In this document: positions 2,880-29,854 of the stretch, in pieces
How positions within the stretch are numbered: the stretch's first letter is position 1
How the letters are laid out: each line of letters starts with the position of its first letter
Source of the DNA: a phage
Length of the DNA stretch: 64,000 nucleotides
Sequence record: PZ242158.1
Reading direction: 5' to 3' (one strand)
Made by a program: the position numbers and the translations under genes
Notes under the pieces: generated by a model
Seen by the model: the letters and a program-made list of their open reading frames with translations, nothing else
What the model was told of the DNA's origin: nothing
Databases searched by the model: none

Positions 2880-5303
2880 ATGAGCATGTGGTCGTTCGAT
2901 TTTGAGTCATCCGGTTTGCTGGAAGACCCAGATCTTTATTATCACTGCGGCCTGTTTAAAGAGCTGAATAAGAACCGTTTTATGCTGTTCCTTCCTCTGA
3001 ATGACCGCACACACTACTCCGAGGAGGATATAGAGAAGGCCAAGAACTTTATTCTGGCAAAGAAAACTCTTTATAAGGATTTTGAAGTTCGCATAGCAGA
3101 TTTTTCGGAGTTGGAAGGTTGGCTTACAGGAAATTCCGACTGGTCACCAACAGCTTTGAACTGCCATAACTGCTACAGTTATGACTTTATGCTGATGGAG
3201 AGATTATCCGGTATTCATTTTGATATGTTCCGTGATCCTAAATGCATGGGGACTATCAACGACCACCAGGTTAACCTGTTTGATACGTTGGCTATGAGCC
3301 GAATCTTGTGGCCTGATCGCCCTTTACCAAAAGGTTGTCCGGACGCTGTATTCAACCCGGTTACTAAGAAAATGCAACCTGTTGGTCCTCACGGCCTTAT
3401 GGCATGGGGCTACGCCCTTGGTAACCAGAAAGTTCAAATTGATGACTGGCGCGATCTTCCGCTGTGGAAATATGTGGATCGTGTGTTCGAGGACGTTATC
3501 ATCCAGGAGTTGCTCTGGAAAGAGTTGGTAGCGGAATCAAAAGGTGTATTCTACGGCAAATCTGACATGCAGAACTTTATGTATGACCCTGCCAAAGAGA
3601 AGCCTAAAGGATTCAAGAAGATTACCTGGAAGAATGCATTACGCCGAGGCATGCTGCAGCATTTCCTGATGGAGCTGCAGGCTCGACAGGGTGTGTATTT
3701 CGACATAGATGGGGCTATTGCTTTACGTGACCGCTGCGATGCGTGGATGAAAGAGATCGCTGATCGTGTTGAACCACAACTTCCTTTAAAAGAGTTATCA
3801 ATGTCTCAGCGGCCTAAGTTCCCTGAAAAGCCGTTTAACCAGGATGGGACAATCTCCAATAATGGTTGGAAATGGTTAAAAGACAAGCTTGGCTACCCTG
3901 TGGACATGAGTGCTTTAGAATTCAAAGCTCCTCCTAAGCGAGCATTTACCTCCACAGGAGATGTCAGTAAGATGGGGATAAAATGGTGTGAAGAGATGGG
4001 CTGTAAAGACCCTGACAAGATGGCGGATTTCTTGAGGGGCTATATCAAGGGCACCTCCACACCACAACCTTTACCTAAAGAGCTAATGGATCAGGCAATA
4101 AGTGATCTACAGCAGAAGCGAATGCCTGACTGCAAGATACCTATGAAAATCAGTAATCAGGACGATATTAAGCGATACCTGATCAGTGCTGGTTGGCTTC
4201 CGACAATGTGGAGAACTAAGGATGTAACTAAAGACAGCAAGAAGAAAGCTCTACCTGATGCAGATGTTGATGCACGAGTGTATGCATATATGGACGAGCT
4301 TTTAGAGTCAGAGTATTGTGACCTAATTATCAACTTCTGGAACAAAACTGATGCTAAGTTCCAGACAACCGTGCACAAGTTCCGAAGCTTTCCTAACTCC
4401 GAAAGGATTAAAAAGGAAGTATTCGGGAAAATACGTAGAAAAGCTAGGGCACTTATTACTTCTCCGCAACTGAAAGATACGTTTGGACACCTATGCCCGA
4501 ATCTTGAAAAATTGAACGGAGAGATGGCTAAAGATATCGTCTTGTGGTTATCATTGCGAAACCGCAGATCGGTCCTTGATCCAATCAAGGAGGATAAGGT
4601 TGATACTGGTCTTCTTAATCACCCACGTTTGAAGATTGACCATAAGCTTCCTGCTAAAAGTTCTGGATTAACAAACACTTCCCGACAGAAACACAGTATT
4701 TGTGCAAACATGCCTAAACCATCTCCTAAAGTGGTTATGGGTAAAGAGATGCGTAGTCTGTGGGGTGTTCCTCCAGGATACTTTGAGATCGGTATTGACG
4801 GGTCCAACTTAGAGCAGCTTATCGGGGCTTGGGGTGCCTTTGAGTTCGACAACGGCCTGTATTACGATGTTGTAAGTAACGGGGACGCACACCAAAACAA
4901 TGCTGAGGCATATACAAAAGTAGCAGGTAGAGAGGTGTCTCGTAACGACGGTAAACCTATCACGTATGGGGTTATGTATGGGGCACAAAAAGATAAAGTT
5001 GCAGATATGCTGGACATCTCTCCAGAGTTGGGACAAAGGGTAATCGATGCACTCTGGGATGCCAACCCTGGTCTTAAGGGGCGTAAAGAAGATCTGGAGA
5101 AATTCTGGGAAGCAACGGGTAAGAAGTTTATCTACTCTTTTGATGGTCATGCTATCTGGACCCGATCTAAACACTCTTTACTTAATGCATACCAACAAAA
5201 TGGCGGCGCATCGTTGTGTGACTTAGTTGGGATACTCATGCACCATCAAATGGTGAAGCGTGGGTGGTACGATGAAGGTGTTCGTCGTATTATCTATTAC
5301 CAT
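2880..5303 (+). CDS. DNA polymerase, family A, exon 1
   Basis: AAGGAG RBS; exo motifs FDFESSG and HNCYSYD; motif B KPITYGVMYG; ORF stops one codon after the His where motif C (HDE) is expected. Confidence 0.8.
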
Positions 5304-7281: not shown

Positions 7282-7291
7282 AGGAGGTAGA

Positions 7292-7663
7292 ATGTTAGTA
7301 AAAGGTACCCACACAGTCAAACAACGTATTGAAGTTGAGATTGATGACTGCGAGCTGAAGCATATTTTACGGTCATGCTCCAACGTTTTGCTCCTTAGCA
7401 TTCTTCAGGAGCGAGCAGAGAACGAGTTCTTAAATGCACTGGCAGGCCGTCCTGGTGACTTCTGTGTGCGTAAGCGTGGTGACAACAAGTCATGGCTGTG
7501 GGAAATCGATGCCGACTGGGATTACCACAAAAATGAGGGTATAGATGAGCCTATTCGTGAATTGACAGACAAAGAGGTTCAGACGTACAATGAAGTTTGT
7601 CATTGGGCAACACGCCAACAAATCTACCTCGACCCTGTGTGGCTGATTGAAAATAGCCATTGA
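7292..7663 (+). CDS. hypothetical protein
   Basis: Start set at Met after GAGGAGG RBS (track ORF begins 7265); no domain. Confidence 0.5.
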   Translation: MLVKGTHTVKQRIEVEIDDCELKHILRSCSNVLLLSILQERAENEFLNALAGRPGDFCVRKRGDNKSWLWEIDADWDYHKNEGIDEPIRELTDKEVQTYNEVCHWATRQQIYLDPVWLIENSH

Positions 7664-14614: not shown

Positions 14615-14804
14615 GCTTAAATCTGCATGGAACATCGCTGTGGGAGACGAGATCCGCATCCCAGGCGGAAAGACAATCATGAAGATATCTCGTATCGAGT
14701 ACGAAGGTGATCGTGTATTCCACATCTTTGCAGAAGATGGTCGAGAAATTTATATACAGGCAGGTTCTCACATTTATATCCGTAAGAAAGGGGACGACAA
14801 ATGA
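14607..14804 (+). CDS. hypothetical protein
   Basis: Internal Met after AAGGAGGG RBS (track ORF begins 14541). Confidence 0.45.
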   Translation: MFKLKSAWNIAVGDEIRIPGGKTIMKISRIEYEGDRVFHIFAEDGREIYIQAGSHIYIRKKGDDK

Positions 14805-15130
14805 CAGAGATCATCATTTCAACTGCAGGGTATGTGTTCCTGACAATCATTGCACTGACTATTTTGGTTACAGTGTATGGGTTTGTTATCCTTCCTATCC
14901 TTGAGACATTTAGTTTGTGTCGGTGTTGGAGAAAAGCTTACGGGCCACAACCGTGGAAGGACTGGCCTCACCTGGTGCGCTTAGCGTTCTCTTATGCTTA
15001 CGATCACTCTAGCAGTGCATGCATAACCGGATACCACGCCCACAATTGGAGCTGGGAAGGGTTGAGGAAGTGGAATGTTACAAAGACTATACCTCTCCGC
15101 ATGTATAAACCTAAAAACAAAGATAGCTGA
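14801..15130 (+). CDS. membrane protein
   Basis: N-terminal hydrophobic span ISTAGYVFLTIIALTILVTVYGFVILPIL; coupled start. Confidence 0.5.
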   Translation: MTEIIISTAGYVFLTIIALTILVTVYGFVILPILETFSLCRCWRKAYGPQPWKDWPHLVRLAFSYAYDHSSSACITGYHAHNWSWEGLRKWNVTKTIPLRMYKPKNKDS

Positions 15131-15730
15131 TACTTGAAAATTTCTGGCATATCAAGTATAAGGGGGATTTCTAAAATGGATTTCCTCCTTTTTGATATTT
15201 CACCAGGCCAGATATTTTAAAATTCTTAGAAAATCAGAAAACGGATAGAAAACTAAAATGGATTTTTCAGGGTAGACACGATGAGCTGAGCCACTCATCC
15301 TATCGTTTGCGTCATATTCCGGGCTACCATTCCAGATTTTCCGCGTATGCTCACACCCTTCTACCAGAACTTTCCCACTCGCCCTTGGCCTTTTATGGCA
15401 ATAATCCAGCCACTATCTTGAAGTTGCGGTACAGCTCTCCAAGTACTCGATCTGTTTTTCGTTTCAAAGATTGAATTTTCTGAAAATTTTTCTCGATAAA
15501 TTTCTCAGTACTCGATCTGTTTTTCGTTTTCTGAATCGGATTTTCTGGAAATCGTTCCAGCTCTCGACCTGAAATTTTTGGGGACGAAATCGATTTTTCG
15601 TTTTCAGAAATGGATTTTTAAAATTTCTATATGGGAATATTTTATGGGATACTGTTTTATAGGAAATTGTTACGGAGGGTAATTAGCATGCTAATTAAAT
15701 TTATTAAATGCGAGGAGTTCTCATTTAGAA

Positions 15731-15807
15731 TTTTGAATGATAATCATTCTCGTTTGCAGAATAACGGGCAGGCCCGGTGATTGTCTCCCGGCCCCTGTTG
15801 CCCCGGC
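15731..15807 (+). repeat. conserved non-coding element, copy A (AATGATAAT...CCGGTGATTGTCTCCC)
   Basis: Shares extended similarity with copy B at 15861..15945 and an inverted copy at 24901..24948. Confidence 0.5.
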
Positions 15808-15860
15808 TTGTTATTATAGTATCACACAGGACAAAGAAAGCAAGGATTTTTTGCATAAAT

Positions 15861-15945
15861 TTTTAAATGATAATGATAACCGTTCTCATTTTATGCAGCG
15901 CCCATCCCCGGTGGTTGTCTCCCCCGTCACCGGTGCCTGCCGTCC
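15861..15945 (+). repeat. conserved non-coding element, copy B
   Basis: AATGATAATGATAAC...CCGGTGGTTGTCTCCCCCGTCACCGGTGCCTGCCGT; followed by ACCTGGCGGGGCC boxes near 15966 and 16032. Confidence 0.5.
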
Positions 15946-16406
15946 TTTCGATAGGCATATTGTGCCACCTGGCGGGGCCGCTGTCAACACTTCTTCAAAA
16001 ATTTTTTCTAACATAATGCACCAACCGCTGCAACCTGGCGGGGCCAGCCTGGCAGGACCTGACTGACCAGGTAGGAGAGAGTGAAAACTTGCAAACCTGG
16101 TAGGCCTATGCTACAGGGCAGGTAACAATTGAAGAGGAGGTACAAAAATGAAAAGTAATATAATCCCCTGGAAAATGTAGCGATCAACGCCGCTGAAGTT
16201 ATCACCCTGGTTGAAAAGGCTATGGCGGGAGCGTTGGAACATAAAGAAGAGTACGAAAAATGATGGTTAACCTGGCAGGGGCGGCGGCTGGAGAATTCTT
16301 CCCAAAAAATAATTCTAACTAATGGTTGACAGCTCGGAGAGTTCTGTTATTCTTATCCTCGCAAGGTGAACAACACCACACTAATTAACAGAGAGGATAA
16401 AAAATC

Positions 16407-16604
16407 ATGAACGCCTACGGAATTAAAGTACGTCGCAACACTCACCAGGCCGTCACCGATCAAATGGTTTGCCAGGTGGACGTAACCATCAACAACGGGC
16501 AAGGCCTTTATAAATTCCGTCGCGGTCAGAGCTATACCCGGCAACAGCTTAATCGTTGCGCCCTGACAAAAGGCCAGATCAACCACTGGTTTAATAAAAA
16601 ATAA
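16407..16604 (+). CDS. hypothetical protein
   Basis: AGAGGA RBS; no domain. Confidence 0.55.
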   Translation: MNAYGIKVRRNTHQAVTDQMVCQVDVTINNGQGLYKFRRGQSYTRQQLNRCALTKGQINHWFNKK

Positions 16605-17149: not shown

Positions 17150-17554
17150 ATGAATAAGAACGTACGCCGCATCATGAATGAACTGGCAAACGATGAAAAA
17201 ATTATTGACATGCATTTGATCAACATTTGCCGCCGTTGTGTAACATATAACAACCGCGCCGCAAAAGCGCGTGAGATGAACGCAAAAGGCACCTTAAAGC
17301 CATTCCAGGTGGTGGTAAAGGCCATTAAAGATGTAACTAATACGGCAAACCAGGTACAGGGGAGCACCAACGAGAGTACCAATATTGATCCGGCTTACAT
17401 CATGAAACGGATCCGGACCTGCAAGAACAAAGAGCAAGTGTATAATGTCATAGACTGGTTGGATTCTATGGGCGATGTGGTGTACAATAGATTCTCTGCA
17501 GCTATTGAGATCCAGCTTGACAGGTTAGACGGTAAAGTACTTAAAACTTACTAA
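17150..17554 (+). CDS. hypothetical protein
   Basis: AAAGGAAAAA RBS; no domain. Confidence 0.6.
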   Translation: MNKNVRRIMNELANDEKIIDMHLINICRRCVTYNNRAAKAREMNAKGTLKPFQVVVKAIKDVTNTANQVQGSTNESTNIDPAYIMKRIRTCKNKEQVYNVIDWLDSMGDVVYNRFSAAIEIQLDRLDGKVLKTY

Positions 17555-17555
17555 A

Positions 17556-17600
17556 TTTATTTTTAGATGGCCTTGACTCCAGGGCCATCAATAAAGTAAA
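17556..17600 (+). repeat. 44-bp conserved intergenic element, copy 1
   Basis: TTATTTTTAGATGGCCTTGACTCCAGGGCCATCAATAAAGTAAA right after a stop codon; 7-bp inverted repeat GATGGCC/GGCCATC. Confidence 0.6.
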
Positions 17601-17634
17601 TTAATCTCAGCTAAGCGAAAAAGGGGGCTTTAAG

Positions 17635-17833: not shown

Positions 17834-18175
17834 ATGACTACTATGACCGCCGCAGAAAAAGCTATTCAGATCGCCGCACTGAAAAAACAGATCGCAGACC
17901 TTGAGAACAAGATCGATAACTTTGAAATCGACGAGGACAAGTACGACGAAAACTATGATGAATGGTTAGACGAGATCTACGGCGAAATTATGATCGGAAA
18001 CATTTCTTTTCTTCCGTCGCGTATCCTCAAGGAGCTAGATCCTATCGCTTACCGCTGCGGATTTAGCGACTACATCGACAGCCTGGATATTGAGGACGAT
18101 GAAGAATACCAGGAATTACAGACAGAGTTAGAAGAAGCAAAAGAAGAGCTTGCAGAACTGGAAGAAAACGAGTAA
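17834..18175 (+). CDS. acidic coiled-coil protein
   Basis: AAGGAGAAAA RBS; Asp/Glu-rich C-terminus. Confidence 0.6.
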   Translation: MTTMTAAEKAIQIAALKKQIADLENKIDNFEIDEDKYDENYDEWLDEIYGEIMIGNISFLPSRILKELDPIAYRCGFSDYIDSLDIEDDEEYQELQTELEEAKEELAELEENE

Positions 18176-18177
18176 GA

Positions 18178-18221
18178 TTATTTTTAGATGGCCTTGACTC
18201 CAGGGCCATCAATAAAGTAAA
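18178..18221 (+). repeat. 44-bp conserved intergenic element, copy 2
   Basis: Identical to copy 1, again directly after a stop codon. Confidence 0.6.
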
Positions 18222-18264
18222 CTTTATACTGTTAACACTGAACTAATGCATAGGAGTTAAAACC

Positions 18265-18510
18265 ATGGCAGCACTAATCACCAAATATTATGCCCCTACC
18301 AACACCAAAAGCGCCCGTATCATGGTAAAAGGCTTCGGACGTAAAAAGGTGTACACCTGGGATTATGCCTTAGACACGGAAGACAACTACACCAACGCGA
18401 TGACCGATTTTATTAATGATCTGAACACGCGGATCTTGACAAATTATAAAATTACCGATATTGCCTATATAGGGGAAGGCGGGATCTGTTTTGTCGGTAT
18501 CGTCAAATAA
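18265..18510 (+). CDS. hypothetical protein
   Basis: TAGGAG RBS; no domain. Confidence 0.6.
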   Translation: MAALITKYYAPTNTKSARIMVKGFGRKKVYTWDYALDTEDNYTNAMTDFINDLNTRILTNYKITDIAYIGEGGICFVGIVK

Positions 18511-18585
18511 GCTGTTTTTTCGGTGGTCCTGGTAGCAGGGCCATCTATAAAGATAGTTTATCAATACAATGAAAGGAGAAAGTAC

Positions 18586-21713: not shown

Positions 21714-21914
21714 ATGAGCAACAATATCCGCGTTATTAACTTCAAAAAAGAAGAAAAAATTGCCGTGCTGATTGACGGTCAAGAAATCTTTAAAGGTGAT
21801 TATGAAGATCATCAAACGGCGATTAGTATCACTCGCGTGATTGGTTACCATAATTTTTACCCTCAAGGCGCTGAGGCAGCAGTAAAACTAATTAAAGAGA
21901 TTGTAGGCCTGTAA
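21714..21914 (+). CDS. hypothetical protein
   Basis: AAAAGGAGAAACAAA RBS. Confidence 0.55.
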   Translation: MSNNIRVINFKKEEKIAVLIDGQEIFKGDYEDHQTAISITRVIGYHNFYPQGAEAAVKLIKEIVGL

Positions 21915-21916
21915 AA

Positions 21917-21961
21917 TTTATTTTTAGATGGCCTTGACTCCAGGGCCATCAATAAAGTAAA
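21917..21961 (+). repeat. 44-bp conserved intergenic element, copy 3
   Basis: Identical to copies at 17556 and 18178; directly after a stop codon. Confidence 0.6.
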
Positions 21962-22005
21962 TTTAAACCCTGTTAAAATAATCAGTGCAAAAAGGAGTAA
22001 TGATC

Positions 22006-22879: not shown

Positions 22880-23164
22880 ATGGCTATTGTTACCGTTGGC
22901 GATGTAGTAGAAATGGAAGCCAAATACTTAAAAGCTGGTATGCATATCATACGGAATGATCAAGAATTGTTATTAACCATGGTTGAATATAATCCCGGTC
23001 AGGATTATCCAAGCATTGACTACTTTTTCCAGTATGTTGATGAAGAATTAAAAGAGGATGAGGCTTATCAGGGTGAATTTTGTAATTTCTTTTGCCCTGA
23101 TGAGGTTGTAAAAGTTATCTATCAACCTGGCGTACCTTTCCCGCTGCACGCTATCAACAAATAA
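22880..23164 (+). CDS. hypothetical protein
   Basis: TAGGAG RBS; followed by ACCTGGCGGGGCC box and GGGGCC-GAAAA-GGCCCC hairpin. Confidence 0.55.
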   Translation: MAIVTVGDVVEMEAKYLKAGMHIIRNDQELLLTMVEYNPGQDYPSIDYFFQYVDEELKEDEAYQGEFCNFFCPDEVVKVIYQPGVPFPLHAINK

Positions 23165-23219
23165 ACCTGGCGGGGCCGAAAAGGCCCCCAATTATGAAAA
23201 TAAAGAGAGGCAAATCATC

Positions 23220-24857: not shown

Positions 24858-24887
24858 AACAGGGCTTGCAATGGTCCTGTTTTTTTG
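24858..24887 (+). terminator. rho-independent terminator
   Basis: AACAGG...CCTGTT stem followed by TTTTTTT. Confidence 0.55.
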
Positions 24888-24900
24888 TTATACTTGTTTC

Positions 24901-24948
24901 ACGGCAGGCACCTGGCGACGGGGGGAGACAATCACCGGGTGTGCCTGC
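24901..24948 (-). repeat. inverted copy of the CCGGTGATTGTCTCCC element
   Basis: Reverse complement closely matches copy B core at ~15905-15945. Confidence 0.5.
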
Positions 24949-24970
24949 TATATAAAAACTATAAAAACCG

Positions 24971-26259: not shown

Positions 26260-26859
26260 GTCTGCTCTTCCTCCCTACCATAAACGGCCCTACCTGGCAA
26301 GTGGAATAATTGACGAGCCATCAATCCCACACACTGTACAAATATACATGTAAAATAACTATTGCATAACCTTTCATTGTGTGGTAGCGGTGCTATTTTT
26401 ACCCGTTTTCCTTCCAAAATTGCACGTAATGCAGCTATTGCACAAAATTTAACCTGATGCGCATCTTCAATATCTTGTCAACAACTAAAAATCTTTATAA
26501 GTCATACACTTACACAAACCAAAAAGCGTGTTCTACGTGAAAAATCGAGTATAACTATAGCCGACAGATCTCAGAATTTACGTACGCTCACCATTCTATA
26601 GCCTGCTAAGTATTTATTCCGACCATAGAATAACAGAATAGTCAATACCTGCATAAAATAATTATTCGTTTAAATTGCATAACATAAATCAGCTCAGGTG
26701 TCAACATTTTTCGTAAACAGTCTGAAATTGTCACGGCAAGTTATCATAATCAGAGAAATCTTTAGTCGTCTAATGTTTACTGTACGTTACTATACTAACT
26801 GGAATCATTAGATGACTAATAGAAAGATAAGAAATAATTAACAATACAATTATTTTATC

Positions 26860-27045
26860 TGTAACAATAAGGCAACTATGCAAACGAATGGCATGGCGCG
26901 ACGGAGTCGCGACATAATATAAAAGCAGTAACCATCACCCCCGTGATAGTTTGTCTGCAATCTATTAATCAGATCATAGTTGCCTTGTATTTAGTTAATC
27001 ATGACATAACAAGCAAGGCAACTATAGATCTTCTAATAGTTGCCC
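26860..27045. repeat. iteron-like cluster (AGGCAACTAT / ATAGTTGCC in both orientations)
   Basis: At least four copies within ~180 bp plus duplicated ATGCAAACGAATGGCATGGC and palindrome CGCGACGGAGTCGCG in an AT-rich ORF-poor region. Confidence 0.5.
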
Positions 27046-27284
27046 TGCTTTTATATTATGTCATATATTATTAACTTGTTAATTGTTAGTCAGTCAAATC
27101 AACAGCGTTATCATTTCAGTCTTTATTGTTGTTGATCGTTATTGTTATCATGCAAACGAATGGCATGGCTTATCATCTCTGTATAAACAGTTTATGCGTG
27201 AACAGTGAGGCATGCAATAGTAACAATTGTTATTGTGTCATCATGTCAAGGGTAAAGTGTCATAGTATGTCAGACATGTTTTTC

Positions 27285-28277
27285 CCCTCTTTGTCAAGTG
27301 CTGCATGAAAAAATTTACAAGCTGGTATGGTAGCATTTTTGCGGCCTTGTTTACATTCAGGAGTGTATGTATAATCCTTGTTGTGTGGGCGTTTATACGT
27401 CTGGACGGTCAGAAGTCTGCAGGTTAATATCTAATCTATTGGCTGCTAACTATATCCCACACAAATGATAAGAAATATAATTGTTATATGCGTAAACTGT
27501 AACTCATGTTATCAATCCCTGTATGTATCGCCAGTGGTGCGCATAATGGGTATTATGTTAAATTGCCCGTAATGATAACAGTTCTCACAATGATAGGTAT
27601 TCTCATTCATCCACACAAAATAGGTTGCAAATGTTGTGCCACTGTGTGAACGGCCTGGCCTATTAATTTCTCTCACTGCCTCGATATTTGAGAATTGTTA
27701 TAAGAATGAGAAGTATCCATGTTTATATTACATCTACTTGGTTCAGAACCAAAATGCGCGAAAGCGTTTCACGATAACTAGCGACCACGGTCTGTTCCCT
27801 GGCGGCCATACGGCTTCTACTGAACGCAGCAGAGGGCGATAATCCCCTCTTTGTCAAGTGCTGCATGAAAAAATTTACAAGCTGGTATGGTAGCATTTTT
27901 GCGGCCTTGTTTACATTCAGGAGTGTATGTATAATCCTTGTTGTGTGGGCGTTTATACGTCTGGACGGTCAGAAGTCTGCAGGTTAATATCTAATCTATT
28001 GGCTGCTAACTATATCCCACACAAATGATAAGAAATATAATTGTTATATGCGTAAACTGTAACTCATGTTATCAATCCCTGTATGTATCGCCAGTGGTGC
28101 GCATAATGGGTATTATGTTAAATTGCCCGTAATGATAACAGTTCTCACAATGATAGGTATTCTCATTCATCCACACAAAATAGGTTGCAAATGTTGTGCC
28201 ACTGTGTGAACGGCCTGGCCTATTAATTTCTCTCACTGCCTCGATATTTGAGAATTGTTATAAGAATGAGAAGTATT
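27285..28277. repeat. tandem direct repeat: two near-identical ~430-bp copies (about 27285-27717 and 27845-28277) separated by ~128 bp
   Basis: Long stretches read identically at a ~560-bp offset; each copy contains promoter-like TTGTTT-17-TATAAT. Confidence 0.7.
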
Positions 28278-28410
28278 CCCATTCCGTCCGCCTGGCAGCG
28301 CTCCTGTAGGTCCTGCAAGGACTCTAGCTTTCAGCTAGACCCTTCGGGCCTCCCTACAGGTCAGGTCAAAATCGTGGTAGAATTGGGCCTATTCAGATAT
28401 TTCTGGCTGA

Positions 28411-28952
28411 CTCTTCAGGTCTGTGTGGGAAAAGCCAACCTCTCCGGCGGGGCAGGGGGAGGTCAATTAAAAAATTTACGTGGTGTATGAAGCGCTCTTC
28501 AGGTAAGGCAGGTATTATGGGATGAAACCCTCTTCAGGCAATGATATTTGTGGGTGTGATATTTGCTGGAAAGCCAGATATGACGGGACTCCCGGCGGGG
28601 CAGGGGTAGTACAGACAGGGAAAATATGAGAATGTAGTTGGGGAAATTGATCAGACAGGTAGAGTATGGAATATGTTACAAGTATGTTAAATATGGAGGT
28701 TGAATATCTGTAGGATTTGTGTGTAAAATCAAAGACTTAAGGGGTGTTGTGATATTTTCTATAAATAATTCAAGTTTAATAGGTGATATTTGTCTCTATC
28801 CGCTTTGTGTGGTAAACAGATTCAGATGAGATTGGTTTACAAGTGTATACATAATATACAAATTAAAGATACAAGAAACCCCCCATCCCCCTTCGGCTAC
28901 CATTCACCTTTTCCTCTGACTGGTACTTAAACACTTATTCAGACTCTTCAGG
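28411..28952. repeat. cluster of CTCTTCAGG boxes (4 copies; a 5th near 29594) and duplicated CCGGCGGGGCAGGGG
   Basis: 9-mer recurs at ~28411, 28495, 28530, 28944 within non-coding DNA; also long inverted repeat CCTGTAGG...CCTACAGG at ~28300-28360. Confidence 0.5.
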
Positions 28953-29304
28953 TTATCACCCATATATCATATGGCAGTGACTGGTGTCCTCCGGCCCCTC
29001 TTTCGTCACCCGTCCGCTTCGCCATGCTAATGCCATAGCCAATGGTTCGGTTGTTCACCCTGTTCACTCAGGTGTATCTCCATACCCCTTCAAACCGAAG
29101 AGAACAGAAAACCCGAATTACTCGGTAAAAGAAAAGAGAAGAACTTAATTTTATCAGGATAGGCAAGAATGTCAAGGCATGACTGCTCACTAAACAAGCA
29201 AACAGTCATGTGTGGGAGGTAAGTGATTGTGGTGGTGGGAAATTTAGTTGAAAGATGTGTTATAGGTGCGCTTCCAGCACTTTAGCCGGGCAGCTAATTG
29301 TGTG

Positions 29305-29520
29305 TCAGTCCAGTGGTTCATCACCTACTTCACTGAAATCAATGTTCATGGTCTCCTCCCAACCATCAATCTCAGCACCAGAGTAGAGATCTTTAGGACT
29401 TACTCCCAAAGCATCAGCAACAGAGTCCATATTTAACACCTCTGGCAGGTATGATTCATCGAATTCAAGGTAAATCAGGCCACGAGTGTTGTCAGCTCCA
29501 CCAAATATTTCTATCTTCAT
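29305..29520 (-). CDS. small acidic protein
   Basis: First gene of the minus-strand array; Asp/Glu-rich; no domain. Confidence 0.5.
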   Translation of the reverse strand: MKIEIFGGADNTRGLIYLEFDESYLPEVLNMDSVADALGVSPKDLYSGAEIDGWEETMNIDFSEVGDEPLD

Positions 29521-29641
29521 GAAATCTCCTCTGGAAATGAGAGTGTGAACAGGGTTTTATACGTTCCGATGCACAGGAATTATGCACGTTTGCCTCTTCA
29601 GGCCATGCTTTAGCATGAGGAACCTGTGTGGGCTCGGTGCT

Positions 29642-29854
29642 TCATAGTCTACCACCCCTGAACTCTTCGTGCTCAGGCATAATAGAGAACCAGATATCTA
29701 CGATGTCTTCCCACGTTAGGTCATCAGCCTCAGGATCTACCTGGAGCGAAGATGGAGAATCTTCAGAATCTAAGTTTTCCTCTTTCACTGGCTCAGCCAA
29801 GGGACATATAGTCACTCCTTTGGATGTCTCTTCAGATGCATGTGTGTTTATCAT
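29642..29854 (-). CDS. small acidic protein
   Basis: Start overlaps upstream stop (ATGA). Confidence 0.5.
   Translation of the reverse strand: MINTHASEETSKGVTICPLAEPVKEENLDSEDSPSSLQVDPEADDLTWEDIVDIWFSIMPEHEEFRGGRL

Follow-up and report, generated by a model that had tools for sequence, protein, structure and literature searches.

Putative Fur operators beside a conserved promoter-proximal element in a non-coding island of rV5-like phages

That Fur controls bacterial genes, and also some cargo genes of prophages (stx1, sitABCD), is textbook knowledge. In the literature, we found no report of Fur operators built into the control regions of obligately lytic phages, nor of the promoter-element-operator layout described here. 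The locus is a non-coding island in the genome of an E. coli phage that is a Vequintavirus (rV5-like); positions refer to the window, meaning the whole 64,000-nucleotide stretch analysed (PZ242158.1). Among described systems, the ryhB promoter resembles the units of the island in combining a host-type sigma70 promoter with a very similar Fur box (ryhB GCGAATGAGAATGATTATTATT; phage AATGAGAATGATTCTCATT), and the phage units, too, probably make a short non-coding transcript, presumably with iron as the signal. However, the ryhB box overlaps the -10 and the start, whereas the phage box begins about 53 nt downstream of the best-supported start. The phage units also share only a short run with the RyhB RNA (TTGTCTCGCGAT, in some relatives) and have no Rfam match, no terminator (units 1 and 2) and no E. 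coli counterpart.

The primary origin of T7 consists of two promoters followed by an AT-rich stretch. As in this origin and at the ColE1 RNA II primer promoter, one or two predicted promoters of the island point into an AT-rich, geneless region and the transcript start is G-rich, but these are promoters of the host type and not for a phage polymerase, and they are accompanied by iterons and Fur boxes. Like HK022 put and lambda nut, the phage elements are paralogous, would lie in the first ~60 nt of early transcripts and occur in opposite genome orientations. In contrast to the two conserved stem-loops of put and the boxA/boxB of nut, the phage element has no conserved structure or boxA-like sequence, and the island units have no downstream genes to antiterminate into. 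Non-coding repeat region 3 of T5-like phages (the “injection stop signal”) is likewise a large conserved non-coding island of a virulent coliphage that exceeds neighbouring genes in conservation, with many direct and inverted repeats and arrays built from the same Fur-box sequence (DT57C 7286–7585). The T5 region carries paired DnaA boxes and forms part of a terminal repeat governing DNA entry in two steps (bioRxiv 10.1101/866236). The island described here differs in having no DnaA boxes and no known link to DNA entry, and inspection of a T5-like locus did not show the GAGACAAWCACC element.

An earlier note on this DNA had described 1.2 kb without credible genes. The non-coding island is real, although its true extent is about 1.0 kb (15131–16147), since from 16148 on lies a small ORF conserved across Vequintavirus. 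The island and its borders contain the following features:

15130–15159, no strand: inverted repeat ATACTTGA..TCAAGTAT (string search), conserved among Vequintavirus genomes and abutting the stop codon that closes the final + strand gene upstream (ORF 14801–15130)
15174–15183 and 15256–15265, + strand: two of the three AAATGGATTT copies, inside the conserved AT-rich block 15131–15268
15269–15445, no strand: hypervariable spacer whose + strand is rich in C, with GC skew falling to -0.40
15433–15479, 15498–15544 and 15572–15618, + strand: three iteron-like direct repeats (repeat search), the third AAATGGATTT at 15608 included
15600–15735, no strand: the most AT-rich segment of the island by composition (27–28% GC)
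16148–16330, + strand: small conserved ORF (MKGN..), frameshifted here, containing the ACCTGGCAGGGGC variant at 16270–16282
16326–16353, + strand: predicted first strong rightward early promoter, TTGACA-16-TATTCT (promoter scan), preceding the gene at 16407

Among 10 Vequintavirus genomes, 88% of the columns of the AT-rich block are invariant. The hypervariable spacer reaches only 41% invariant columns and 77% mean identity, compared with 95–97% in its flanks. Segment 15701–15995 shows 97.1% identity and 91% invariant columns, against 77% in the adjacent spacer and 91% in the neighbouring small ORF. The whole of 15446–15995 is near-invariant, including parts without promoter or operator; it covers most of the iteron-like repeats (15433–15618), which are themselves nearly invariant in Vequintavirus. 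A perfect 18-bp palindrome within the AT-rich segment, TAATTAGCATGCTAATTA (15680–15697), is also conserved in this genus. Upstream of the island lie genes for a primase-helicase and a DNA polymerase, and the promoter at 16326–16353 has a counterpart annotated as a sigma70 promoter in rV5 and ECML-10. The island is best explained as a conserved regulatory region heading the early-gene block.

Annotation of the same region in rV5 (ORF196–199), FV3, FFH2 and ECML-10 lists “hypothetical proteins” across the island, and the window itself offers a 109-aa ORF at 15737–16066. That these are ordinary small protein-coding genes is nevertheless very improbable. The ORFs start inside a Fur box and run through promoters, their strand and extent vary between records, and the careful annotation of phage inoa omits most of them. 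They are not kept in other genera, where insertions and deletions are frequent, and the conserved blocks do not show change at every third base. Among the ORFs of the island area, on either strand, only the one from 16148 is conserved as a protein, with homologues FV3_00181, FFH2 ORF178 and naswa_128 (74–90% amino-acid identity among these three); in the source genome and in inoa, it is truncated by a 1-nt deletion in a C-run near 16165. Several rV5-type “hypothetical proteins” are thus probably regulatory DNA, and their annotation would need correction. Captured host sequence was not found, the island counterpart being absent from 5,426 E. coli genomes, and a tRNA and tmRNA scan detected none in the window or related loci. 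The tRNA features surrounding the element in Klebsiella phage record OY757067 were traced to a mis-registered annotation.

All repeats reported in the earlier note are present, with small corrections of position, and exceed chance. The 22-mer GTACTCGATCTGTTTTTCGTTT occurs exactly at 15443 and 15508, with a third, degenerate unit at 15572–15618 (unit spacings of 65 and 74 bp). Exact copies of AAATGGATTT are found at 15174, 15256 and 15608 and nowhere else in the 64 kb, while the 12-mer AAATGGATTTTT is exact only twice. Copies of CCGGTGATTGTCTCCC lie at 15774–15789 (+, exact), 15908–15923 (+, 1 mismatch) and 24923–24938 (-, exact), where 0.32 would be expected per window by chance at up to 3 mismatches. 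The two proposed units that share AATGATAAT..CATTCTC..CCGGTGATTGTCTCCC extend over 15736–15805 and 15866–15952, about 130 bp apart. Read on the opposite strand, CCGGTGATTGTCTCCC is a conserved element, GAGACAAWCACC…CTGCCCGYTAT, whose full pattern reads GAGACAAWCACC-N4/5-CTGCCCGYTAT. With their putative promoters and operators, the three copies are arranged as follows:

15707–15725, no strand: degenerate Fur-like box AATGCGAGGAGTTCTCATT, aligned to AATGAGAAGCATTCTCATT of GAP31 and Mydo
15736–15754, no strand: putative Fur box 1, AATGATAATCATTCTCGTT, with one mismatch to AATGAnAATnATTnTCATT and 15/19 to GATAATGATAATCATTATC
15756–15806, - strand: element of unit 1, core GAGACAATCACCGG at 15774–15787, with CCGGTGATTGTCTCCC on the + strand
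15813–15843, - strand: putative promoter P_left1, -10 TATAAT at 15813–15818 and possible -35 TTGCTT at 15838–15843
15866–15890, no strand: putative Fur boxes 2a and 2b, AATGATAATGATAACCGTTCTCATT, overlapping with a 6-bp shift
15894–15952, - strand: element of unit 2, core GAGACAACCACCGG at 15908–15921
15959–15987, - strand: putative promoter P_left2, TTGACA-17-(TG)CACAAT (promoter scan, 10/12 with TG)
24859–24894, + strand: terminator hairpin (24859–24880), belonging to the upstream gene, with an embedded putative promoter, TTGCAA (24866)-17 nt-TATACT (24889–24894)
24901–24953, + strand: element copy 3, core GAGACAATCACCGG at 24925–24938, followed by no Fur box in Vequintavirus

The element starts 25–37 nt (mostly 27–30) after the -10 of a sigma70-type promoter. 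On the G-rich strand, a promoter scoring at least 9/12, with its -10 ending 25–37 nt upstream of GAGACAA, was identified in 12 of 18 distinct copies, as opposed to 1 of 18 on the C-rich strand and a background rate of 3.3%. Because these promoters sit at a fixed distance on the strand opposite to the one read in the earlier note, that reading of the strand is probably wrong and the transcribed sense is taken to be GGGAGACAATCACCGG. Their placement implies that the island units would be read leftward (minus strand) and the 24.9-kb copy rightward. The G-rich sense thus carries the consensus promoters for the predicted transcripts, which would start G-rich over C-rich template DNA. These promoters are matches to the host sigma70-type consensus and would be expected to fire.

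Their hexamers persist across lineages while the spacer sequences differ. In Vequintavirus, P_left1 has an over-long 19-nt spacer and scores 8/12; at the same position, other genera carry TTGCAA/TTGATC-16/17-TATATT/TGcTATTAT with unrelated spacers. The -10 of P_left2 varies within Vequintavirus at position 3 only (CACAAT/CATAAT/CAAAAT), and a homologue with a GC-rich spacer is present in W70, CR8, F4M1E and R7. The terminator-promoter cassette of copy 3 recurs in ESCO13, GEC_vB_MG, CR3 and inoa, where the hairpin stems covary (ACAGG/CCTGT, CCAGG/CCTGG, GGGG/CCCC) and the hexamers are kept. On the + strand downstream of copy 3 there is another predicted promoter and then a gene, not a terminator. 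After units 1 and 2, the promoter and terminator scan revealed no intrinsic terminator on either strand, and no recognisable gene lies downstream of the predicted leftward transcripts.

Comparison with relatives, a check proposed in the earlier note, showed that the units are conserved beyond Vequintavirus. The element of unit 1 is conserved in at least six genera, that of unit 2 is invariant among the 10 Vequintavirus genomes, and copy 3 is conserved in Phapecoctavirus, Seunavirus and Certrevirus. With flanks that cannot be aligned, the unit itself can still be identified, at 72–86% identity, in Phapecoctavirus, Seunavirus, Certrevirus, Mydovirus and in Serratia and Salmonella phages. Across 23 aligned copies, GAGACAAWCACC varies little or not at all, as a single-stranded seed shared by paralogous small RNAs would. 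Alignment for covarying stem positions, also proposed there, yielded no covariation and no consensus fold among the copies, and RNAalifold returned no pairs for the 23 elements. In the copy-3 family, the sole well-supported helix is the terminator hairpin, next to a weak predicted 4-pair 5' helix; the GG/CC and GT/AC variants of unit 1 assort independently. What is conserved is therefore sequence and geometry, and the earlier preference for conserved sequence over stem potential, with no compensatory change to be seen, holds.

Copy 3 alone folds better than shuffled sequence. A conserved hairpin with the 16-mer in its loop was considered and dropped, as single copies can fold but share no common structure and no covariation. 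Rfam gave nothing meaningful, either for the whole window at gathering thresholds or, with permissive E-values, for the island together with ten related loci. Comparison by eye with consensus sequences gave no convincing match to a sigma54 promoter, Shine-Dalgarno sequence, CsrA site or -10-like pause signal, and the bases required for each are not conserved across copies. A perfect sigma54-like match is present upstream of one copy in contig L144 and absent near the other copies inspected by eye. The related phage phiTE carries an antitoxin-RNA mimic, pseudo-ToxI (PMC3475682); such a mimic was also discarded, given that a search with the ToxI repeat placed no ToxI-like sequence within 9 kb of the phiTE element.

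The second component of the units is a set of Fur-like boxes. The earlier note had suggested a site for a trans-acting factor or a small-RNA family; the second may apply, and the first finds support in part of each unit: AATGATAAT…CATTCTC matches the operator consensus of the host Fur protein and is both conserved and multiplied in relatives. Boxes were judged by the 19-bp consensus GATAATGATAATCATTATC or the palindromic reading AATGAnAATnATTnTCATT, and they are putative Fur operators by this match, at which Fur would bind. The island boxes have 1–2 mismatches to AATGAnAATnATTnTCATT, and GATAATGATAACCGTTCTC (15869–15887) matches GATAATGATAATCATTATC at 16/19 positions, for which 0.01 is expected per window. 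Allowing up to 3 mismatches, AATGAnAATnATTnTCATT has 10 matches against 1.19 expected; 8 of these fall in the two non-coding islands of the window, the second of which (27.5–28.3 kb) holds further Fur-like boxes. The degenerate box at 15707–15725 starts 29 bp from box 1; its counterpart in other genera, the second box of the array, fits the consensus well.

In those genera, the matching part forms a perfect palindrome, AATGAGAATCATTCTCATT, that is repeated in arrays every 29 bp, and zero-mismatch palindromes such as AATGAGAATGATTCTCATT are found in phAPEC8, R7, CB7, IMG140 and IMG147. The AATGAGAATGATT of these relatives also lies within the Fur box of the E. coli ryhB promoter. In 9 of 9 members of the unit-1 family, the first box begins exactly 33 nt after the core, and further boxes lie at +62, +91 and +120. 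Arrays hold 1–6 boxes at the regular period. Tandem or overlapping placement, as expected of Fur sites, is seen here in the shift between 2a and 2b and in relatives in the arrays. Downstream of copy 3, Fur-like boxes are present in CR3 and in the Seunavirus homologs GEC_vB_MG and EspYZU12. Furthermore, more than 120 IMG/VR contigs contain an exact copy of the 20-mer AATGATAATCATTCTCNTTT, amid unrelated flanks and often directly after a strong TTGACA-17-TATAAT promoter, which points to a shared host protein, not a phage-specific one.

Our preferred reading, held tentatively, is that the units produce short early transcripts gated by Fur and iron and directed toward the AT-rich iteron region. 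Each of the two tandem leftward units would consist of a sigma70-type promoter, a gap of about 20 nt, the invariant element and at least one Fur operator; the third paralogous unit (24.87–24.95 kb) would be read rightward, without a Fur box in Vequintavirus. Host RNA polymerase would fire these promoters early in infection, and iron-loaded Fur at about +53 and beyond would stop or limit elongation, leaving a short leader RNA with the conserved element. When iron is scarce, Fur would leave and transcription would continue, in the island into the AT-rich iteron region and at the third locus, in Seunavirus and Certrevirus, by read-through into downstream DNA. The element may serve as the recognition site of a factor, on nascent RNA or on DNA. 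Fur cannot be indispensable for what the element does, as copy 3 in this genome has no Fur box. Fur operators usually overlap a promoter or start site, and a roadblock operator at +53 is unusual; in the island, the boxes lie about +53 from the predicted leftward starts and within the spacer of only a weak rightward promoter-like site. The spacer and score of P_left1, together with leftward transcripts that reach no recognisable gene or intrinsic terminator, speak against a transcriptional model. A purely transcriptional model also leaves unexplained why the iterons and the AT-rich part are so extremely conserved.

That conservation, which includes the promoter- and operator-free parts of 15446–15995, counts in favour of a transcription-primed replication origin, a possible though rather unlikely reading. 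Here the leftward promoters would send G-rich transcripts into AT-rich iteron DNA, where an RNA-DNA hybrid or local opening would start synthesis by the T7-type helicase-primase and Pol A; the Fur boxes would tie initiation to iron, and hence to deoxynucleotide supply, and the element would promote hybrid formation or serve as an initiator's binding site. In its layout, the island recalls the T7 primary origin, with three iterons (65- and 74-bp spacing) adjoining the segment of 27–28% GC, G-rich transcript starts on C-rich template and primase-helicase and DNA polymerase genes upstream, and contig L144 has similar iterons beside its elements. Yet no DnaA box was detected at up to 1 mismatch except a chance AT-rich site, GATC is depleted (3 in 1.3 kb versus 5.5 per kb in the window), and GC skew does not turn at the island, its sole switch at ~28–30 kb following gene orientation. 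Moreover, copy 3 has the element without iterons or an AT-rich tract, and there is no known initiator protein. It is unlikely that the boxes act mainly as a decoy, titrating host Fur as phage DNA multiplies and derepressing iron uptake or iron-sparing to the benefit of the phage, with promoter proximity being secondary. Such titration is the principle of the plasmid Fur-titration assay (PMC2189734), and it would suit arrays of 1–6 boxes with no regulated gene behind them, the additional boxes at 27.5–28.3 kb and the long arrays in the terminal repeats of T5-like phages. For a decoy, however, neither the exact spacing of 33 nt from the element nor the constant distance to a promoter would be needed, and the source genome has only ~7 good boxes.

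Reading the other strand gives Fur-repressed, RyhB-like small RNAs, which we regard as quite improbable. The promoter would be TTGAAT-18-CAGAAT, whose spacer holds the Fur box in the classic ryhB arrangement of a box between -35 and -10; it would produce a C-rich RNA of ~95 nt from GGGCAGG.... This RNA would use the seed CGGUGAUUGUCUCC to pair with ribosome-binding sites, and in the third paralog, copy 3, it would end at a bidirectional terminator. Consistent with this, 14 of 19 unit-1 homologs retain the TTG directly 5' of the box, the paralogs share sequence from GAAT onward and then diverge, as related small-RNA families do, and in this window copy 3 is antisense to its flanking genes and followed on that strand by a hairpin and U-run. 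The supposed -10 argues otherwise: its key -11 A is not conserved (CGGAAT in CB7, phiTE and IMG147; CTGAAT in Mydo and in copy 3 of Seunavirus and Certrevirus), and in the latter two genera the Fur box lies ~30 nt away from it. Good promoters on the C-rich strand are confined to 1 of 18 copies, units 1 and 2 lack a terminator, the hairpin after copy 3 in CR3 and inoa has its U-run on the gene strand only, and no seed-complementary target occurs elsewhere in the 64 kb.

The promoter-element-operator layout behind the preferred reading, transcripts gated by Fur and iron, is common to several phage subfamilies and seems to be undescribed. Contig L144, which is unrelated, carries three copies of a similar iteron (GGTCTCGACAGATTTTCACATA) at the corresponding position and repeats the order of iterons, elements with Fur-like boxes and an inverted distal element after a terminator. 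Long Fur-box arrays also occupy the non-coding part of the terminal repeat in T5-like phages. Literature searches found nothing on Fur boxes or small RNAs in these phages, and nothing relevant on their replication origin or non-coding region. From consensus matches and geometry, we tentatively suggest that unrelated virulent phages (rV5-like Vequintavirinae, phAPEC8-like Stephanstirmvirinae, T5-like and many uncultured ones) carry Fur-operator arrays in conserved non-coding control regions; in the rV5 and phAPEC8 lineages, a fixed spacing would tie these operators to an early promoter and a new 30-nt element. Such phages would thereby read host iron status, or rewire it through Fur titration, to time early transcription or DNA replication; the spread of the layout over several subfamilies likewise suggests that they may sense or manipulate it. 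If Fur binds here, therapeutic broad-host-range coliphages of the rV5/phAPEC8 type would behave differently in iron-poor gut, blood and urine, and there would be a concrete candidate for the ligand of the repeats in the T5 terminal region, which are so far unexplained.

The recurrence of ACCTGGCGGGGCC noted earlier was also borne out, with exact copies at 15967, 16033 and 23165 and two-mismatch variants at 16270 and 22677 (5 matches against 0.54 expected in the window). These boxes are not a single functional class. Copy 1 (15967–15979) is the spacer of the predicted leftward promoter TTGACA-17-CACAAT, and the variant at 16270 lies inside the 16148 ORF. The other exact copies are placed as follows:

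16033–16106, + strand: cluster of CCTGG(C/T)(G/A)GG boxes, comprising ACCTGGCGGGGCC box 2 (16033–16045), GCCTGGCAGGACC (16047) and ACCTGGTAGGCC (16095)
23165–23177, + strand: third exact ACCTGGCGGGGCC, after the stop codon of the gene ending at 23164

The cluster is the densest CCWGG cluster of the window (6 in 200 bp versus a mean of 0.4), and deletions in FV3 and naswa end within or beside its boxes. The copy at 23165 forms a hairpin arm, its GGGGCC pairing with GGCCCC six bases on.

A sequence search with the island (15130-16400) and its flanks matched 122 phage records at 80-96% identity, nearly all of them Vequintavirus (rV5-like) myophages of E. coli. Between 16 and 18 records labelled 'Campylobacter phage' (H4-H7, H17, H18 and others; MG0656xx) are 92-93% identical to the island; some carry an UNVERIFIED mark, and they probably reflect a wrong host label or contaminated samples. 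Upstream, the + strand encodes a primase-helicase, a DNA polymerase and then small genes up to 15130, while downstream lies a long + strand block of small genes with a strong TTGACA-type promoter at each. The rV5 genome paper leaves the region undiscussed (PMC3606486), and the rV5 record annotates it with short ORFs 196-199; that such ORFs are protein-coding genes is very unlikely. The gene-free core described in the earlier note is real, and its right end has to be moved to 16147, where a small ORF follows that other Vequintavirus genomes conserve at the protein level (three relatives share 74-90% identity with one another). The strictly non-coding DNA is therefore 15131-16147. Loss of one base from a C-run near 16165 breaks the ORF, and an A-run near 16255 also differs by 1 nt; the ORF is a pseudogene or else shows a sequencing error in homopolymers.

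Features of the island and of the third element copy
15433-15618: the 22-mer, an iteron-like repeat of two exact copies and a degenerate third unit, with spacings of 65 and 74 bp
15736-15805: unit 1
15818-15813, minus strand: perfect TATAAT of P_left1, the candidate leftward promoter of unit 1
15866-15952: unit 2
15987-15959, minus strand: P_left2, the candidate leftward sigma70-type promoter of unit 2, TTGACA-17-(TG)CACAAT
16148-16330: small ORF (MKGN..IPLENVAIN.. in other Vequintavirus genomes), frameshifted in the window and in phage inoa
24866-24894, plus strand: candidate promoter of copy 3, TTGCAA-17-TATACT, its -35 in the loop of the terminator hairpin that comes before it
24901-24953: copy 3, the inverted third copy of the element

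Motif searches recovered all the repeats listed earlier in the window. The 16-mer occurs at 15774 (+), 15908 (+, one mismatch) and 24923 (-), with 0.32 sites expected at ≤3 mismatches, and is part of a promoter-proximal element read from the opposite strand. AAATGGATTT is present in three exact copies confined to the island. Exact copies of ACCTGGCGGGGCC lie at 15967, 16033 and 23165, and variants of it at 16270 (within the coding sequence of the small ORF) and 22677 (0.54 expected). Its copy at 15967 forms the GC-rich spacer of P_left2, and a similar spacer, usually with CCWGG, is found at the homologous promoter of W70, R7, GAP31, Mydo and F4M1E. The boxes at 16033, 16047 and 16095 make up the window's densest CCWGG cluster, within or next to which natural deletions of FV3 and naswa terminate, and the copy at 23165 is one arm of a GGGGCC/GGCCCC hairpin past a stop codon. 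As judged from these contexts, a single common function of the ACCTGGCGGGGCC boxes is not apparent.

The element is embedded in a regular layout: a -10 hexamer, 25-37 nt (mostly 27-30), GAGACAAWCACC, 4-5 free bases, CTGCCCGYTATTCTG and then Fur-like boxes arrayed at a 29-bp period. In 12 of 18 distinct copies, a promoter with a score of ≥9/12 lies on the same strand with its -10 ending 25-37 nt before GAGACAA, compared with 1 of 18 on the other strand and 3.3% of random positions, counts that give no strict probability because the copies share descent. The differences between their spacers nevertheless show that the promoter hexamers are maintained. Variation in the P_left2 -10 among Vequintavirus genomes is restricted to the tolerant third position; at the P_left1 position, other genera carry TTGCAA/TTGATC, 16-17 nt and TATATT/TGcTATTAT with unrelated spacers; and in relatives of copy 3 the terminator stem covaries while the hexamers are kept. 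In each of the nine unit-1 family members compared (at least six lineages), the first Fur-like box lies exactly 33 nt past the first base of the core, with further boxes at +62, +91 and +120. A 50-nt cassette recurs within the early block (17553-17602, 18174-18223, 18509-18558 and 21914-21963; also 24859-24894): a terminator hairpin whose loop includes a -35-like TTGACT/TTGCAA, followed right after the stem by a -10-like hexamer. It has the look of a compact unit, terminator and promoter in one, that is used repeatedly between early genes. A perfect sigma54-type match, TGGCACGATAGTTGCT, was seen in the unrelated contig L144 (IMGVR_UViG_3300030333_002466; 3385-3402, minus strand), upstream of one element copy in the C-rich strand reading; none was noticed beside those other copies that were read by eye.

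Conservation was measured as identity to the window in an alignment of ten Vequintavirus genomes. The segment with boxes, elements and promoters (15701-15995) reached 97.1% identity with 91% invariant columns, followed by the iterons and AT-rich part (15446-15700, 95%) and the left AT-rich block (15131-15268, 94%), whereas the C-rich spacer (15269-15445) fell to 77% with 41% invariant columns. The adjoining small ORF showed 91%, so the island core is more strongly constrained than the neighbouring gene. Outside the genus, a sensitive search recovered the unit-1 segment alone (72-86% identity, flanks unalignable) in Phapecoctavirus, Seunavirus, Certrevirus and Mydovirus and in Serratia, Enterobacter and Salmonella phages. 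About 100 nt of the 24.9-kb copy is conserved in Phapecoctavirus, Seunavirus and Certrevirus. In non-Vequintavirus genera, the unit-2 position instead holds a highly conserved block of ~85 nt, downstream of a leftward promoter and starting with the related GGAGACGCCACC.

The AATGATAAT…CATTCTC part of the units is a Fur-box look-alike. The site at 15869-15887 matches the classical consensus GATAATGATAATCATTATC at 16 of 19 positions (0.01 expected per window), and box 1 at 15 of 19. The palindromic form AATGAnAATnATTnTCATT has 10 sites at ≤3 mismatches vs 1.19 expected, eight of them within the window's two large non-coding islands. Boxes of relatives are often perfect palindromes, and their AATGAGAATGATT is shared by the Fur box at the promoter of E. 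coli ryhB, retrieved as a comparison (L169). The exact 20-mer AATGATAATCATTCTCNTTT is found in at least 120 IMG/VR viral contigs (loci L008-L127) with unrelated flanks; among the matches listed, many have a strong TTGACA-17-TATAAT promoter just upstream, and some are in tandem or arrayed. The simplest reading of a site that recurs across this many unrelated phages is that it belongs to a host protein. Also among the matches listed, two contigs (L036 and L119) carry the 20-mer beside DnaA boxes. At the sequence level, and at that level alone, Fur-operator features were compared and are present, and from the consensus match we infer that Fur may bind the boxes. The literature searched, which included few subscription papers, describes neither Fur boxes nor small RNAs nor an origin for this part of Vequintavirinae genomes.

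The proposal that sequence rather than stem potential is conserved agrees with RNAalifold, which gives no consensus pairs for 23 aligned elements; the covarying stem positions sought by aligning the copies were absent from the element. Across genomes, two variable dinucleotides of unit 1 are found in every one of their four possible combinations and thus do not pair with each other. Units 1 and 2 fold no better than shuffled sequence. Copy 3 does (z about -3 to -4), the terminator hairpin being the sole well-supported helix of its family, next to a weak predicted 5' helix of four pairs. Rfam returned no match, and the features of a structured RNA family were not found.

Read from sequence, the units would best be explained, if tentatively, as early units transcribed by host polymerase, with Fur and hence iron as the gate. 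Fur bound from about +53 would leave a short leader with the element as the sole product. Without Fur, polymerase would read on to the left and enter the AT-rich DNA of the iterons; at the distal locus, in some genera, it would enter the DNA downstream. A factor would recognise the element in either its RNA or its DNA form. The main rival, a T7-type replication origin primed by transcription, is unlikely: it better accounts for the iterons and AT-rich tract being conserved like promoters, and features of an iteron origin are partly present, but the window holds no direct origin signal. It is more doubtful still that the boxes serve as a Fur decoy, which would fit the arrays and the additional boxes elsewhere but leaves the exact spacing unaccounted for. 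The initial reading, C-rich small RNAs from Fur-repressed rightward promoters, does not hold well and is distinctly improbable, as its supposed -10 (nAGAAT) has no conserved -11 A, no terminator follows units 1 and 2, and a U-run follows the copy-3 hairpin on that strand in only some lineages. By contrast, a good sigma70-type promoter match lies on the opposite strand at every copy.

In terms of working logic, the Fur-repressed ryhB promoter is the nearest known counterpart. In relatives L005, L054 and L003, 19 of ~27 positions of the C-rich strand TTGTCTCGCGAT…CCCTCGC agree with TTGTCTCGCGATCAGGAAGACCCTCGC, the promoter and first stem of ryhB, which may be chance or a distant relationship. 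In kind, the island comes nearest to a non-coding, repeat-bearing region that is conserved in T5-like phages and has arrays of an identical Fur-like box. One such array (L019, Escherichia phage DT57C 7286-7585, left terminal repeat) is matched by 523 T5-like records, and the long array adjoins paired DnaA boxes of the non-coding terminal-repeat region. A preprint treats these repeats as part of an 'injection stop signal' and does not mention Fur (bioRxiv 10.1101/866236). In another retrieved locus, L132 (OY757067.1 4331-6813), eight tRNA genes and HNH endonuclease pseudogenes are annotated; neither ARAGORN nor Rfam detected a tRNA there, so the feature table is apparently shifted against its sequence. 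In the window, a second, larger non-coding island of ~3.4 kb (26420-29800), without credible ORFs, sits just before the flip of gene orientation and may be the 'non-coding' box drawn on the rV5 genome map. Within it, a direct repeat of ~560 bp lies at 27290-27720 and 27850-28280; both copies carry a TTTACA-17-TATAAT promoter as well as paired Fur-like boxes (27589, 28149), and there is an additional box at 28265.
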